From a virus (lineage: Duplodnaviria > Heunggongvirae > Uroviricota > Caudoviricetes), in IMG/VR virus record IMGVR_UViG_2802429247_000007, positions 1 through 30,935 of that record: a stretch of DNA of 30,935 bases. One strand, given 5' to 3'. The notes beneath the pieces are model-generated. The model searched no databases and was not told the origin of the DNA. It worked only from the letters and a program-made list of their open reading frames with translations. Positions 4,465 through 13,122 of the stretch are shown one piece after another; the stretch's first letter is position 1; each line of letters starts with the position of its first letter. The position numbers and the translations under genes are program-made.

Positions 4465-4919
4465 TGTTTTTGGTTTTAACTGTTCCGCGTGCGCTCAGCC
4501 GCATTCACCACATCACAAAATTCACTTTAAAAAGGGCGGCAGAGCAGTCACGGAGTAAAACTGATACCGCCAAACGTCACCAGAAAATTGATAACAGAGG
4601 GCGTTGCAGCGGGGTTGTCACTTAAGCGTATGGTCAACCTGACAACCCGGTGTCCTCAACGGGGAAGGAATAACCCCGCCATACTTACCGCCGCGCCATT
4701 TCGCGGAGTGCCACAACCGGAAGCGCACGGTCGACGAAAATTTAACGACAGGCTATCTATGAACCAACTACCTCGCCGTGCGCTTTCGCGTTATGGTCTG
4801 ACTTTTCAGGGAAATATCCTTTCAGTAAACTGTCAGTGCCGGATGTTCACCCGTGTCCGGCGCACGCACTCCACCTCACCCGTGGAGAACTCCTTAATTA
4901 CCAACCCTCAGGAGGGTGA

Positions 4920-5938: not shown

Positions 5939-6175
5939 TCACTCACCTGAGTTTCTTTCCAGCCAGCGACGGGCACCATTTTCGGTTTTAAACGTTTTGC
6001 TTTTGGTATACGTCATCGCGGTGAATGTGCCGTCCTGGTTGGGAAACACGCCGTACACCAGAGATTCGTTGTTGCCAAGATCGATAGTATCCATGTTGAC
6101 CTCATTTCCCCTTAACGCCGGGGTAGCGGAACAAAAACCTGCTGCATAGTTATTAAAGTTGAACCCTGCCGTCAT
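5939..6175 (-). CDS. DUF1391-like small prophage protein (YdaF-like); likely true start at internal Met, giving 5939..6094 (51 aa)
   Basis: Sequence MDTIDLGNNESLVYGVFPNQDGTFTAMTYTKSKTFKTENGARRWLERNSGE recalled as a Rac-type small protein; RBS (gagg) precedes the internal ATG. Confidence 0.5.
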   Translation of the reverse strand: MTAGFNFNNYAAGFCSATPALRGNEVNMDTIDLGNNESLVYGVFPNQDGTFTAMTYTKSKTFKTENGARRWLERNSGE

Positions 6176-6273
6176 GTTCTTACGCCTCGGGCTGGCTACT
6201 TAACCCCTGACCACTGCCTAGTAACTCGAAGTATTACCCTGCATTCTGTGGGGTGGGGTGAGGGAATGAATGA

Positions 6274-6302
6274 AGTTTAGAAAAATGAACTTTTCAGGTC
6301 AA
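6274..6302 (-). promoter_or_regulatory. Candidate early-left promoter (pL-like): -35 TTGACC, 17-bp spacer, -10 TAAACT on minus strand
   Basis: Hexamers read directly from the reverse complement; lies between cI and the leftward early genes. Confidence 0.45.
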
Positions 6303-6303
6303 T

Positions 6304-6319
6304 GTTTTTTTATCAAAAC
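6304..6319. promoter_or_regulatory. Candidate operator OL: 16-bp inverted repeat GTTTT-TTTATC-AAAAC
   Basis: Same GTTTT-N6-AAAAC architecture as the two sites in the cI-cro intergenic region; abuts the pL -35. Confidence 0.45.
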
Positions 6320-6386
6320 ATTTTAAGCAGGCAGCTGTTAAGCCATCATCACGATGGCATACAGTTAATCAAATAGATGAGGTTGG

Positions 6387-7025
6387 TTAAATATCTTGTT
6401 GAATTTTAAAGCATACGCCCAATATGCAAGATAGATCATCCAGCATAATTGAAGGGTAGCGAGGATTCGTGGGGACTAAAAGAATATCCGGCCCTTCTAT
6501 CTCCAGTTTACGAATGACAGGTGTTGTGGTCCCTTTGGGTAAGGCAAGGACAATATTTCCTGGTTGTACGGTTCGATCGGGATCAACAAAAACTGTTGAA
6601 CCATTTGGGATGGAAACTCCCCCACCAGATGTTGACATACTGTCACTCTCTAGAACAACTGCAAAGGTATTGGCCGGGATTTCTCCGACAAGCTGCACAC
6701 AAGAGGTTATTGAGGAATTTTTCATATAATCACTCCAGCTTGCTGCCTGCTGAAGTGATAGTAGCGGAACCGTTTTTATCGGCGGTAAAGATAGATCAAG
6801 CGAATCACCTGTATTTAACTCTCCTCCATTAAGAAGCCAATTTTCGTTTACTTTCAATATCTTTGCCAGTGAACTTATGTAACGCGAGGACGGCGCTCCT
6901 CCACCGTTCATCCATTGACTTACGGAGCCTTTTGATGCGCCAGTGGCATTGACAAGGTCTTTGCCTTTCAGGTTTAGCGCATGCATACGTTGGGTTATGC
7001 GTTCAGATATTGTTTGCTTGCTCAT
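6387..7025 (-). CDS. cI: cI-like prophage repressor (N-terminal HTH, C-terminal S24/LexA-type autopeptidase domain)
   Basis: 212 aa; HTH region (LKGKDLVNATGASKGSVSQWMNG); C-terminal S24-like region. No leader or SD before the ATG. Confidence 0.92.
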   Translation of the reverse strand: MSKQTISERITQRMHALNLKGKDLVNATGASKGSVSQWMNGGGAPSSRYISSLAKILKVNENWLLNGGELNTGDSLDLSLPPIKTVPLLSLQQAASWSDYMKNSSITSCVQLVGEIPANTFAVVLESDSMSTSGGGVSIPNGSTVFVDPDRTVQPGNIVLALPKGTTTPVIRKLEIEGPDILLVPTNPRYPSIMLDDLSCILGVCFKIQQDI

Positions 7026-7041
7026 GTTTTGATTTTAAAAC
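7026..7041. promoter_or_regulatory. Candidate operator (OR3-like) GTTTT-GATTTT-AAAAC overlapping the pRM-like -10 (TAAAAT, minus strand, 7032-7037); implies leaderless cI mRNA
   Basis: 16-bp inverted repeat directly abutting the cI start codon; -10 hexamer ends 6-7 nt from the ATG. Confidence 0.45.
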
Positions 7042-7058
7042 ACAGATGGTTTTGTTTC

Positions 7059-7088
7059 TTGACTTTCTTTGGTTTTGATTATTAAACT
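7059..7088 (+). promoter_or_regulatory. Candidate pR: -35 TTGACT (7059-7064), -10 TAAACT (7083-7088), with operator GTTTT-GATTAT-TAAAC (7072-7087) over the -10
   Basis: Read directly; same -10 hexamer as the pL candidate; operator copy has one mismatch to the palindrome. Confidence 0.45.
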
Positions 7089-7116
7089 TTTGGCGTTCAG
7101 TTTTATGGAGCGACTC

Positions 7117-7359
7117 ATGAAAAAATCAGAAGTATTAGGCTATTTTGGCGGAGTTGTTAAAACAGCCGCAGCTCTAGGAACGTCAAAAACCACAGTCAGC
7201 ATGTGGGGGGAAGAGGTTCCGTGGAAATGGGCGTTGCTAATTCAGGCAGTCACTGCCGGGGCGCTCAAATATGAGTTACACATACCGACGGTTGTCATTC
7301 CCGGTTCTGATCATAATCCGCCTTCTAACCAAGGGGGGATTCATGAAAATCAAGCATGA
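7117..7359 (+). CDS. Cro-like HTH regulator (YdaS-like)
   Basis: Start at ATG 7117 (MKKSEVLGYFGG...) preceded by ggag; small HTH protein divergent from cI. Confidence 0.75.
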   Translation: MKKSEVLGYFGGVVKTAAALGTSKTTVSMWGEEVPWKWALLIQAVTAGALKYELHIPTVVIPGSDHNPPSNQGGIHENQA

Positions 7360-7768
7360 ACACATCCGCATGGCGATGAATGCCTGGGCGCGTCCTGATG
7401 GCGAAAAAGTTCCAGCAGCTGGAATAACCCAGGCTTATTTTGAGTTGGGTATGACGTTTCCTGAACTGTATGACGACAGCCATCCGGAAGCCTTGGCTCG
7501 CAATACCCAGAAAATTTTCCGCTGGGTAGAGAAAGACACCCCTGATGCAGTTGAAAAAATTCAGGCGTTGTTACCAGCGATCGAAAAGGCAATGCCACCT
7601 TTGCTGGTGGCCAGAATGCGCAGCCACAGTTCAGCTTATTTTCGGGAGCTGGTGGAGACGCGGGAGCGATTGGTGAGAGACGCTGATGATTTTGTCGCAG
7701 TGGCAATCGCCGGTTTCAATCAGATGAACCGTGGTGGCCCGGCAGGAAATGCTGTGGCAGTACATTGA
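7343..7768 (+). CDS. YdaT-like protein (cII-position regulator)
   Basis: ATG at 7343 with RBS aagggggg; overlaps the cro-like gene by 17 nt; sequence resembles Rac YdaT from memory. Confidence 0.55.
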   Translation: MKIKHEHIRMAMNAWARPDGEKVPAAGITQAYFELGMTFPELYDDSHPEALARNTQKIFRWVEKDTPDAVEKIQALLPAIEKAMPPLLVARMRSHSSAYFRELVETRERLVRDADDFVAVAIAGFNQMNRGGPAGNAVAVH

Positions 7769-9397: not shown

Positions 9398-9589
9398 CGA
9401 GATTAAAGTGCATTAGTTCAGATGTAAATTGACATTTTGTGGCACAGGGTAGAGCTAGCGTGGTTGTCCGCTTTGTGCCAGAAGCGGAAGTTGCTTACAT
9501 CGTGCTATGTTAGTTTAATGGGAGCAGGTAAAGGGGGGGATTCCCCAGTAATTCCCCATAGCTTCCCTACCAGGAAGGTAGGCATAAAA

Positions 9590-9620
9590 AACCAGCAATA
9601 ACAGGCTGGTTTATATAATC
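9590..9620 (-). terminator. Stem-loop (aaccagc/gctggtt, 7 bp) with flanking A and T runs; functions best as a minus-strand terminator just 3' of the tRNA fragment
   Basis: Hairpin read directly; T-run immediately follows the stem in minus orientation. Confidence 0.5.
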
Positions 9621-9624
9621 TTTT

Positions 9625-9673
9625 TGGTCGGCACGAGAGGATTTGAACTTCCGATCCCCGACACCCCATGACA
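9625..9673 (-). tRNA. Degenerate 3' fragment (about 48 nt) of a tRNA-Pro gene (anticodon loop through CCA); not a complete tRNA; att-site-like remnant
   Basis: Minus-strand sequence gtcatggggtgtcggggatcggaagttcaaatcctctcgtgccgacca matches the 3' half of E. coli tRNA-Pro(GGG) from memory with about 2 mismatches; the 5' half is absent. Confidence 0.6.
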
Positions 9674-12352: not shown

Positions 12353-12966
12353 CGTAATCTAGTAAAATCGTCGGTTTTTAATCAATTAATTAACTCATCT
12401 ATTACCAACTCCTGGTTGGTTGCTAATGATGTCATAGTGTCGCTAACGGCCTGAATTACTCAGTCCGTTCTTCGCTCAAAGCGGGCTAGAAGGTTAGCTT
12501 GCGTCGGACTTGGCGTATTTAAAGAAGTGCTGGTGGTGACAGGTTATTATGTTCCATTTCTACAGAACAAAATCACAGAAACTATACCCAATAGTTGTAT
12601 TGAATCACTGACGAGACAGCCTCATATTTATCAGGACTGGTGTACGTCCAATACAGGAGGTTGTGGTGCTGGTTCTCAAATGTGCGCTGGCTATTGCTGC
12701 TGTAATGGCAATTTATTGCCTTGCTGTTGTTCTTATGGATCGCCTTTCTGACTGATTTCATATTGGCGAGGTAACGGGAGTTAAGTAGAATGGCTGCGGG
12801 TGCTTGAGGCTATCTGTCTCAGGCATGAACACCAAAGGCAGATAGAGAAAAGCCCCAGTTAACATTACGCGTCCTGCAAGACGCTTAACATTAATCTGAG
12901 GCTCAATCTATGCTGAACACATGTAGGTTAGCCTCTTACGTGCCGAAAGGCAAGGAGAAGCAGGCT

Positions 12967-13122
12967 ATGAAGCAGCAAAAGGCGATGCTAATCGCCCTGA
13001 TCGTCATCTGTTTAACCGTCATAGTGACGGCACTGGTAACGAGGAAAGACCTCTGCGAGGTACGAATCCGAACCGGCCAGACGGAGGTCGCTGTCTTCAC
13101 AGCTTACGAACCTGAGGAGTAA
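12967..13122 (+). CDS. hok: Hok/Gef-family type I toxin (51 aa); in-frame upstream extension from 12910 is Mok-like
   Basis: MKQQKAMLIALIVICLTVIVTALVTRKDLCEVRIRTGQTEVAVFTAYEPEE is a canonical Hok-family sequence (recalled as RelF/HokD-like); upstream leader resembles the hok mRNA 5' elements. Confidence 0.88.
   Translation: MKQQKAMLIALIVICLTVIVTALVTRKDLCEVRIRTGQTEVAVFTAYEPEE

Follow-up and report, generated by a model that had tools for sequence, protein, structure and literature searches.

Does the DNA between the early-left genes and the rightward cro-like gene of this prophage form a genetic switch of its own, and if so, which sequences would its repressor recognise and where would the repressor message begin? 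We addressed this question computationally in a 30,935-nt stretch of Caudoviricetes DNA (IMG/VR record IMGVR_UViG_2802429247_000007; hereafter the window), for which a preliminary description had proposed a lambda-like arrangement with three copies of a palindrome and a leaderless cI. Taking the model as a whole, we hold with good confidence that the region is the lysis/lysogeny immunity switch of a lambdoid prophage of E. coli that appears to be complete. On computational grounds this switch is a well-supported, ordinary example of a known design; its operator sequence, GTTT-N8-AAAC, appears to have been studied by no one.

Boundaries, candidate operators and constraint of the immunity cassette

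Alignment with the heteroimmune prophage CP-933P delimits the cassette: ~96% identity stops near 6262 and restarts at 7338, nothing between these points can be aligned, and the proteins enclosed are unrelated, so that the block from pL through cro is exactly the one exchanged. The earlier suggestion that this segment would define an immunity specificity fits such an exchange. The region is present in 1042 of 5426 complete E. coli genomes. Within it, cI and cro diverge from a 91-bp intergenic region, shorter than 100 bp as in lambdoid switches. The features on which the analysis rests, by position in the window, are as follows.

~6263..7337, no strand: heteroimmune "imm" cassette (pL/OL, cI, OR with pRM and pR, cro), delimited by the CP-933P alignment
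6274..6302, minus strand: pL, -35 TTGACC (6302..6297), 17-bp spacer, -10 TAAACT (6279..6274), called by promoter scan
6275..6290, no strand: OL-b, weak candidate operator GTTTAGAAAAATGAAC over the pL -10, 7/8 core matches
6304..6319, no strand: OL-a, strong candidate operator GTTTTTTTATCAAAAC, exact motif (minus-strand halves GTTTTGAT and AAAAAAAC)
6387..7025, minus strand: cI gene, 212 aa, start ATG 7025..7023, Peptidase_S24 and HTH_3 domains
7025..7060, minus strand: candidate pRM from sequence reading, -35 AAGAAA (7060..7055), 17-bp spacer, -10 TAAAAT (7037..7032), 6 nt, +1 A7025
7026..7041, no strand: OR-a (OR3-like), candidate operator GTTTTGATTTTAAAAC, exact motif
7049..7064, no strand: OR-b (OR2-like), half-symmetric candidate with halves GTTTTGTT and TCTTGACT, over back-to-back -35 hexamers
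7059..7088, plus strand: pR, TTGACT-18-TAAACT, called by promoter scan, predicted to drive cro-ydaT and the early-right genes
7072..7087, no strand: OR-c (OR1-like), candidate operator GTTTTGATTATTAAAC, core exact with one motif mismatch, over the pR spacer and -10
7117..7359, plus strand: cro-like gene, 80 aa, P22_Cro (E 1e-15), Shine-Dalgarno GGAG at 7107-7110
7336..7353, no strand: candidate YdaT site GGGATTCATGAAAATCAA at the cro/ydaT junction, two mismatches to TTGATT-N6-AATCAA
7343..7768, plus strand: ydaT, putative CII-equivalent gene, YdaT_toxin Pfam family, 84% identical to CP-933P YdaT

The palindrome GTTTT-N6-AAAAC occurs where it had been reported, exactly at 6304-6319 and 7026-7041 and with one mismatch at 7072-7087. 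Its two exact copies compare with 0.04 expected in the window from dinucleotide shuffles, a count of two being reached in no shuffle, and shuffling the two AT-rich intergenic regions 200,000 times never produced more than one copy. A shorter core, GTTT-N8-AAAC, is exact at these same three sites only across 30.9 kb, all of them in the two regions flanking cI. The three copies are thus real, but the list was incomplete, since it lacked a further OR site (7049-7064) and a weak OL site (6275-6290). In our refined model the constrained core would be GTTT-N8-AAAC, with GTTTTGAT as the preferred half-site.

At OR, two full sites and one half-symmetric site lie over the pRM -10, both -35 hexamers and the pR -10. 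OR-a covers the pRM -10, ends one base upstream of the predicted +1 and directly adjoins CAT 7023-7025 (the minus-strand ATG), and OR-c overlaps the pR TAAACT; the coordinates therefore bear out the abutment to the cI start and the two hexamer overlaps that had been described. OR-b has one good half only, its right half being without match, and GTTTTG recurs at 7026, 7049 and 7072 in an exact 23-bp phase (~3e-6 in shuffles). A possible fourth phased site at 7095-7110 (GTTCAGTT...) shares GTT only and runs into the cro 5′ UTR with its Shine-Dalgarno sequence, and was left uncounted.

Matching sites are found at pL, one exact (6304-6319) and one weak (6275-6290), the latter standing in the same register to the pL -10 as OR-c to the pR -10. 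They are spaced 29 bp apart, versus 23 at OR, and the position in 23-bp phase (6281-6296) holds no match. An operator had been placed over pL; it does adjoin the TTGACC-17-TAAACT promoter, but it lies 1 bp upstream of the -35, centred at ~-44.5, so that repression of pL by simple occlusion would depend on the weak OL-b.

Constraint was assessed in three independent lineages in which cI differs at 48-51%, and cro at 33-56%, of four-fold degenerate sites. In these lineages the 43-bp block 7048-7090, which contains OR-b, carries 0, 1 and 0 changes and the block 7026-7043 carries 1, 0 and 1, the sole changed position there being position 5 of OR-a, and the spacer patches at 7044-47, 7091-94 and 7114-16 are near-saturated with changes. 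OR-c is invariant across lineages, as is pR in diverged loci, and pL keeps its -35 as TTGAC(C/T) with the 17-bp spacer. Within sites, positions 5 and 12 are the ones that change, and GTTT/AAAC stays unaltered. Furthermore, among 53 haplotypes OL-a varies at positions 6 and 12 only, with invariant GTTT/AAAC arms between two hypervariable flanks. OL-b retains GTTT and AAC in the same haplotypes, and its core is exact (GTTTAGAAAAACAAAC) in lineage L003-L005; its left half and the right half of OR-c coincide with -10 hexamers, by which conservation is confounded there. The same three lineages show no variation in the recognition-helix region of either protein (cI SKGSVSQW, Cro TSKTTVSMW). Selective constraint acts on the sites, and the analysis likewise establishes the sequence anatomy, the protein families and the cassette boundaries. 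No cI relative was confirmed in species-representative genomes, the protein search returned none between 30% and 84% identity, and the 80 loci on viral contigs, all at 99-100% protein identity, are informative for polymorphism only.

The repressor, its candidate promoter and the predicted start of its message

The cI product matches lambda cI at E 4e-10, and among its nearest characterised repressors are P22 c2 (~28% identity) and the mEp460 and mEp390 cI proteins (30%). It combines a helix-turn-helix with a LexA-like S24 domain whose Ser/Lys dyad, S129 of the DSM motif and K173, is shared unchanged with the P22, mEp460 and mEp390 repressors. Downstream of an in-frame stop codon, the ATG at 7025..7023 comes first among the possible starts, with none upstream of it. 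The N-terminal domains of lambda cI, 434 and P22 c2 align to the protein from residues 1-6, and helix 1 of the 434 and P22 DNA-binding domains is matched by its residues 1-14, so that this helix requires initiation at M1. The N-terminus MxKQTISERITQRM is conserved, and dN/dS for cI is 0.06-0.11.

As had been noted, no Shine-Dalgarno sequence precedes this start, the 20 bases upstream (CTGTGTTTTAAAATCAAAAC) being free of any purine-rich element of that type, and the TAAAAT at 7037..7032 is followed by six bases and then A7025, a spacing that implies a transcript starting at the cI AUG. This TAAAAT-6 nt-A arrangement is invariant across lineages, and its geometry, matching that of lambda cI and of CP-933P paaR2, fits a leaderless cI mRNA. 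The first 50 nt of the message are weakly structured, yet no less so than shuffles, and count as compatible evidence only. The candidate pRM -35 (AAGAAA) matches 3/6 positions, and because of this weak hexamer pRM falls below the threshold of the promoter scan and receives no call. OR-b would cover that -35, centred at ~-31.5, whereas lambda OR2 lies at -42; lambda-style activation of pRM is thus not supported by the predicted geometry.

At the aligned cleavage position cI reads QQA-ASW, that is, Ala-Ala in place of the canonical Ala-Gly or Cys-Gly, where the P22, mEp460, mEp390 and lambda repressors all have Ala-Gly. The Ala-Ala pair is kept in every cI variant that retains the linker, and a literature search turned up no relevant case of a natural Ala-Ala cleavage site. 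It is conceivable, at rather long odds, that activated RecA brings about little or no cleavage of cI, leaving immunity uncoupled from, or weakly coupled to, the SOS response. If so, the DicB/DicF division inhibitors and the prophage would be kept under a lock opened by a non-SOS route; translation from the internal GGAG-7 nt-ATG at M101, giving a protein with the C-terminal domain alone, would be one candidate.

For the rightward gene, annotated DicC-like, the cro start agrees with RefSeq, and an upstream ATG at 7105 is missing in loci L006 and L007. In the candidate YdaT site (7336-7353) the right half is exact and the left half reads GGGATT. It is the sole match in the window to TTGATT-N6-AATCAA with at most two mismatches; by itself insignificant, it stands where, by homology, CP-933P has its footprinted O_M.

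Together, the protein families, the intergenic blocks that stay invariant against ~50% four-fold divergence and the CP-933P layout support, computationally, the coherent lambda-like switch first proposed. Briefly, the operators bound by cI-like and Cro-like dimers would be two-fold-symmetric 16-bp sites, built on the core GTTT-N8-AAAC with the best half-site given above, and arranged as three sites in 23-bp phase at OR (OR-a, OR-b, OR-c) and as a strong (6304-6319) and a weak (6275-6290) site at OL. In a lysogen, cI on OR-c, OR-b and OL would close pR and pL and thereby silence cro-ydaT and the early-left operon that pL drives (ydfA-ydfB-ydfC-dicF-dicB). Once Cro or surplus cI occupied OR-a, pRM would be turned off; when active, it (weak -35, TAAAAT, 6 nt, A of the AUG) would yield the leaderless cI mRNA. 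YdaT, in the manner of CII, probably activates a leftward establishment promoter at the cro/ydaT junction. It is by analogy with lambda, P22 and CP-933P that we infer which partner binds each site, in what order the sites fill, where transcription starts and how far, if at all, pRM is activated.

Alternative readings of the sites and of the cI start

The palindromes might not be repressor operators at all, arising instead as by-products of AT-rich promoters (UP elements, -10 hexamers) or as YdaT-type sites. Two of their arms do overlap -10 hexamers, a TTGATT half-site lies in both OR-a (7029-7034) and OR-c (7075-7080), and the closely related YdaT of CP-933P recognises TTGATT-N6-AATCAA. OR and OL, however, contain isolated TTGATT half-sites and no full YdaT site, so this motif was rejected as the explanation of the palindromes. 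The 8-mer GTTTTGAT, moreover, is found with an inverted GTTT partner at OL and OR alike, and the arms outside hexamers (7026-7029, 7072-7076, 6304-6308 and 6315-6319) are invariant at ~50% neutral divergence, except for OL-a position 12 (6315). We regard a non-operator origin as highly improbable. A different reading accepts a real switch but assigns it LexA-like simple negative autoregulation, OR-a being the highest-affinity site over the repressor's own -10/+1, positive autoregulation being absent and OR-b being mere promoter sequence. It would account for OR-a and OL-a being the only exact 5+5 palindromes, for OR-b having no right half and coinciding with two -35 hexamers, and for a site centred -31.5 from pRM, which cannot activate as lambda OR2 does. 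Against it, chance is unlikely to have produced the 23-bp phasing of GTTTTG, a palindrome match gives no prediction of the order of cI versus Cro affinity, and in CP-933P, with an equal layout, pRM is activated when repressor is scarce and is the first place occupied by the Cro analogue (PMC8630535). This leaves simple negative autoregulation distinctly improbable.

Translation of cI might begin at a downstream ATG (M14 or M101, as in several annotations), or the transcript might be leadered, arising mainly from an upstream promoter such as the AATAAT at 7083..7078 or a YdaT-dependent pRE. Databases carry 199-, 174- and 112-aa forms of cI, a good GGAG-7 nt-ATG stands ahead of M101, pRM has its weak -35 and no scan call, and a pRE-type transcript would necessarily be leadered. 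M14, on the other hand, has no Shine-Dalgarno sequence, the alignment of residues 1-14 with helix 1 of 434 and P22 is accompanied by protein-level conservation despite near-saturated synonymous divergence, and the invariant TAAAAT-6 nt-A matches the mapped leaderless paaR2. Lambda, furthermore, has leadered pRE and leaderless pRM transcripts together, so the options are not exclusive. A cI that is not leaderless is therefore unlikely, though it deserves real consideration, and a leaderless pRM message remains our preferred reading.

Relation to known switches

Lambda likewise has divergent cI and cro genes, a repressor with helix-turn-helix and S24 domains, three OR sites ~23 bp apart across pR and pRM, and operators at pL; its pRM also has a weak -35, and its -10 is followed after 6 nt by the AUG with which the lambda message opens (PMC8630535 and established knowledge). 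Its operators are 17 bp, versus 16 bp with the GTTT-N8-AAAC core here, and its pR and pRM starts are ~82 bp apart; the shorter distance here (~70 bp) is what would bring the middle site over the pRM -35. Further differences from lambda lie in OL, where a strong and a weak candidate site are spaced by 29 bp, in the absence of rex genes, in a Cro of the P22_Cro family, in a CII role apparently held by the unrelated YdaT, and in the Ala-Ala rather than Ala-Gly cleavage position.

A mapped comparison is the PaaR2/YdaS/YdaT switch of CP-933P in E. coli O157:H7 (PMC8630535, PMC9986795), for which 5′ RACE placed the pRM start at a leaderless paaR2 and footprints are available (PMC8630535). The two prophages share a common backbone, with the pL leader ~96% identical up to 6262 and the similar YdaT already noted, and pR has identical hexamers and spacing in both (TTGACT-18-TAAACT). 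The CP-933P pRM reads GATAAT-6 nt-ATG, a spacing equal to that of TAAAAT-6 nt-ATG here. CP-933P likewise has equally spaced repeats in which full palindromes alternate with half-conserved sites, and an outer half-site GTTT, and it has a YdaT site at the cro/ydaT junction, where a candidate lies here; its operator sites are 18 bp long (half-site GTTTAGTAA) at ~19-20 bp spacing, compared with 16 bp at 23 bp. By BLASTP, cI shows no similarity to PaaR2, nor Cro to YdaS, no paaA2-parE2 toxin-antitoxin genes lie between cI and pL, setting the locus apart from the PaaR2/YdaS module, and the repressor here bears an S24 self-cleavage domain, unlike that of CP-933P.

P22 immC supplies, in c2, one of the nearest characterised repressors, aligning from residue 1, and shares a Cro of the P22_Cro family; its pRM transcript starts only 4 nt before c2. 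It differs in that c2 retains Ala-Gly, and identity is only 28-30%. Phage 434 likewise has short outer operator arms contacted across a non-conserved centre, as is well established. The P22 operator is 18 bp and that of 434 is 14 bp (ACAA-N6-TTGT), and both differ from the sequence here. The Qin prophage of E. coli K-12 (dicA-dicC-dicB) carries the same early-left operon (ydfA/DUF1391, ydfB, ydfC, DicF RNA and dicB), under the DicA repressor rather than an S24-type cI.

This immunity type occurs in about one-fifth of complete E. coli genomes, yet its repressor carries generic names only and is at most ~30% identical to any studied phage repressor. The predicted operators, promoters and true start would correct the frequent mis-annotation of cI as 112-, 174- or 199-aa forms, and knowing the operators would allow co-immune prophages to be predicted. 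In strains that carry it, the switch would also account for the silence of the DicB/DicF division inhibitors. It may add one more case of a lambdoid maintenance repressor made from a leaderless mRNA, and leaves the general understanding of such switches unchanged.

A few minor features of the region were also recorded. A 32-nt direct repeat (7010-7041 / 7056-7087, 72%) was judged a by-product of two operator copies and T-rich sequence. Rfam gave no match within the region, and the predicted fold of the pL leader RNA is no more stable than those of shuffled sequences (z 0.05). The minus strand carries a conserved hairpin in the interval from the cI stop to OL.

6342..6358, minus strand: conserved hairpin GCCATC-ATCAC-GATGGC

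No T-run follows this hairpin and the terminator scan made no call there; among 53 haplotypes its stems are invariant and its loop is hypervariable, and it is a possible candidate for a transcript-end element.

Gene content and candidate operators

The product of the open reading frame at 6387..7025 (minus strand) is 212 aa long, combines HTH_3 and Peptidase_S24 domains, and matches full-length lambda cI (E 4e-10); its N-terminal domain is alignable to the 434 and P22 repressors starting at residues 1–6. Facing this cI gene is a P22_Cro family gene (7117..7359, plus strand), followed by a YdaT family gene (7343..7768) 84% identical to the YdaT of CP-933P, an E. coli O157:H7 prophage in which YdaT was shown to function as a CII equivalent (PMC9986795). 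Given that DUF1391/ydfA, ydfC, DicF RNA, dicB, and then exonuclease and integrase lie left of the early-left promoter pL, with replication genes, hok/sok, RusA, a Q-type antiterminator, lysis genes, terminase, and head and tail genes to the right, the window is apparently a complete lambdoid prophage and the motif region its immunity region. The DicF antisense RNA (4534–4585, minus strand) and the hok/sok module (sok RNA; 12798–12972, plus strand) occur as in Qin-type prophages, and transcription of DicF and dicB would be expected to start from pL. An N-like gene is not apparent beside pL. The ~170-nt pL–ydfA leader (6095–6262), ~96% identical to that of heteroimmune CP-933P, matches nothing in Rfam, and its folding is no better than that of shuffled sequences. 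Frame translations of 9505–9669 look like a tRNA-like 3′ end; ARAGORN detected neither a tRNA nor a tmRNA anywhere in the window.

A promoter scan performed independently of the motif recovered both previously noted promoters, pL (TTGACC-17-TAAACT, 6302..6274, minus strand) and the cro promoter pR (TTGACT-18-TAAACT, 7059–7088, plus strand). In a few natural variants, the last T of a −10 is altered (TAAACT to TAAACC), for pR in one IMG/VR contig (L021, equivalent of 7088) and for pL in several loci (6274); such changes may weaken the promoter in prophages that are decaying or have been tamed.

The preliminary description had placed 16-bp GTTTT-N6-AAAAC palindromes over pL, pR, and the candidate cI promoter pRM. 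Upon re-reading the sequence, all three copies were found, two exact (6304–6319 and 7026–7041) and one with a single mismatch (7072–7087). The copy at 7026–7041 directly adjoins the cI start (CAT 7023–7025, minus strand), as described, but the pL copy, while exact, does not overlie its promoter, sitting 1 bp upstream of the −35.

Candidate operators between cI and cro (OR) and at pL (OL)
7026–7041, OR-a: GTTTTGATTTTAAAAC; over the pRM −10, abutting +1
7049–7064, OR-b: GTTTTGTT / TCTTGACT; over both −35 hexamers, with a single good half
7072–7087, OR-c: GTTTTGATTATTAAAC; over the pR spacer and −10
6304–6319, OL-a: GTTTTTTTATCAAAAC; 1 bp upstream of the pL −35, centred at about −44.5
6275–6290, OL-b: GTTTAGAAAAATGAAC; over the pL −10, weak

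The 30.9 kb contain two exact motif copies, where dinucleotide shuffling predicts 0.04. Shuffling the two AT-rich intergenic regions 200,000 times never produced two exact copies. Allowing one mismatch gains the third site together with two unrelated matches, while the core GTTT-N8-AAAC occurs exactly only at the three full sites. All three pair the 8-mer GTTTTGAT with a weaker GTTT(T/A)WWW in the opposite half. Within OR, GTTTTG recurs at 7026, 7049, and 7072 in an exact 23-bp phase (~3 per million shuffles), which argues for a third, half-symmetric site at 7049–7064. OL-b is placed relative to the pL −10 just as OR-c is relative to the pR −10, and its core matches at 7/8 positions in the window and exactly (GTTTAGAAAAACAAAC) in one related lineage (L003–L005); the OL-a to OL-b distance is 29 bp, not 23.

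Conservation of the candidate operators among diverged lineages

The region was compared in three independent lineages (L003–L005, L006, and L007) whose cI proteins are 84–90% identical to that of the window (dS 0.73–0.97, dN/dS 0.06–0.11) and in which 48–51% of four-fold degenerate sites in cI, and 33–56% in cro, differ from it. Although both flanking genes diverged, the 91-bp OR region is nearly unchanged, with 0, 1, and 0 differences in block 7048–7090 (P ~1e-10 or less under neutrality) and 1, 0, and 1 in block 7026–7043. Differences concentrate, near saturation, in patches 7044–7047, 7091–7094, and 7114–7116; recent recombination as the source of OR conservation is ruled out, because these unconstrained internal patches have diverged.

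The sole within-site change at OR is T7030C (position 5) and the sole OL-a change in these lineages A6315T (position 12), both leaving the GTTT/AAAC arms intact. Across 53 haplotypes (87 loci), the arms showed zero variation and flanks 6291–6297 and 6322–6326 were hypervariable. Since the cI and Cro recognition-helix regions are likewise invariant in the three lineages, all should have one operator specificity in common. Between the cI stop and OL, a further block (6327–6366) is strongly conserved, including a hairpin, GCCATC-ATCAC-GATGGC (6342–6358), with invariant stems and a hypervariable loop among the 53 haplotypes. Neither strand carries a T-run after it. A possible role is to end or stabilise the cI transcript ahead of pL and the dicB operon.

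An exchangeable cassette and its proposed switch

Aligned with CP-933P, the window is ~96% identical from at least 6121 to ~6262 (pL leader and early-left genes), whereupon homology is lost until 7338, within a candidate YdaT site where cro and ydaT meet; inside, similarity is undetectable between cI and PaaR2 and between Cro and YdaS. Judged by this alignment, 6263–7337 (pL/OL, cI, OR, and cro) is therefore an exchangeable immunity cassette, which fits the immunity specificity proposed earlier. The junction sequence 7336–7353 (GGGATTCATGAAAATCAA) is positionally homologous to the footprinted CP-933P YdaT site O_M (TTGATTCATGAAAATCAA), and its right half alone is conserved because the breakpoint between cassette and shared ydaT falls within this candidate site.

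The 1.2-kb region occurs at ≥80% coverage in 1042/5426 complete E. coli genomes, and only three phage records contain it. In another ~2000 E. coli genomes the query matches at its ends alone, which the exchangeability of the cassette explains. At least 1000 contigs carry the exact repressor, always under a generic name; its nearest characterised relatives (P22 c2, mEp460 cI, and mEp390 cI) are 28–30% identical, and our literature search found no paper on it or its operators. The immunity element is a widespread, uncharacterised new member of a well-known kind.

Repressor and Cro families, promoters, conserved sites, and cassette limits together support the lambda-like genetic switch first suggested, and the mechanism is most likely classical. 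cI and Cro would compete for common operators, with cI shutting pR and pL and limiting its own pRM, Cro shutting pRM first, and YdaT serving establishment. The OR3-like, OR2-like, and OR1-like layout fits lambda spacing, but the arrangement differs from lambda in three ways: the middle OR site would overlie the pRM −35, a position that does not support lambda OR2-style activation; the strongest palindrome overlies the repressor's own promoter; and the strong OL site falls outside the pL core.

Predicted leaderless start and cleavage site of cI

Sequence anatomy and precedent both speak well for the previously predicted leaderless cI mRNA. No Shine-Dalgarno precedes the ATG at 7025, as noted, or M14. 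This ATG is the earliest possible start in frame. Alignments with 434, P22, and mEp repressors assign the residues gained by starting here to helix 1 of the DNA-binding domain, and diverged lineages conserve these residues at the protein level. On the minus strand, AAGAAA (−35, 3/6), 17 bp, TAAAAT, and CAAAAC lead directly into ATG, a spacing that places the canonical +1 at the A of AUG; in every lineage the −10-to-ATG distance is unchanged. The arrangement recurs in CP-933P (GATAAT, 6 nt, ATG), whose leaderless repressor mRNA was proved by 5′ RACE and N-terminal sequencing (PMC8630535); the annotated P22 pRM start lies 4 nt ahead of c2. The predicted cI mRNA 5′ end is weakly structured with the AUG unpaired, which is not unusual compared to shuffles.

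The predicted self-cleavage site (6739–6750, codons 92–95, minus strand) reads Gln-Gln-Ala-Ala-Ser-Trp, with Ala-Ala, conserved in every cI variant retaining the linker, where P22 c2, mEp460, mEp390, and lambda cI have Ala-Gly. Both catalytic residues, Ser and Lys, are present; induction through RecA may be weak or lacking. Because cI contains an internal GGAG-7 nt-ATG (6725–6739, minus strand) ahead of codon M101, annotation by RefSeq and other pipelines is often confined to a 112-aa "LexA family protein" (S24 domain alone); elsewhere the start is placed at M14 (199 aa) or a length of 174 aa is recorded, so that annotated lengths vary among 212, 199, 174, and 112 aa.
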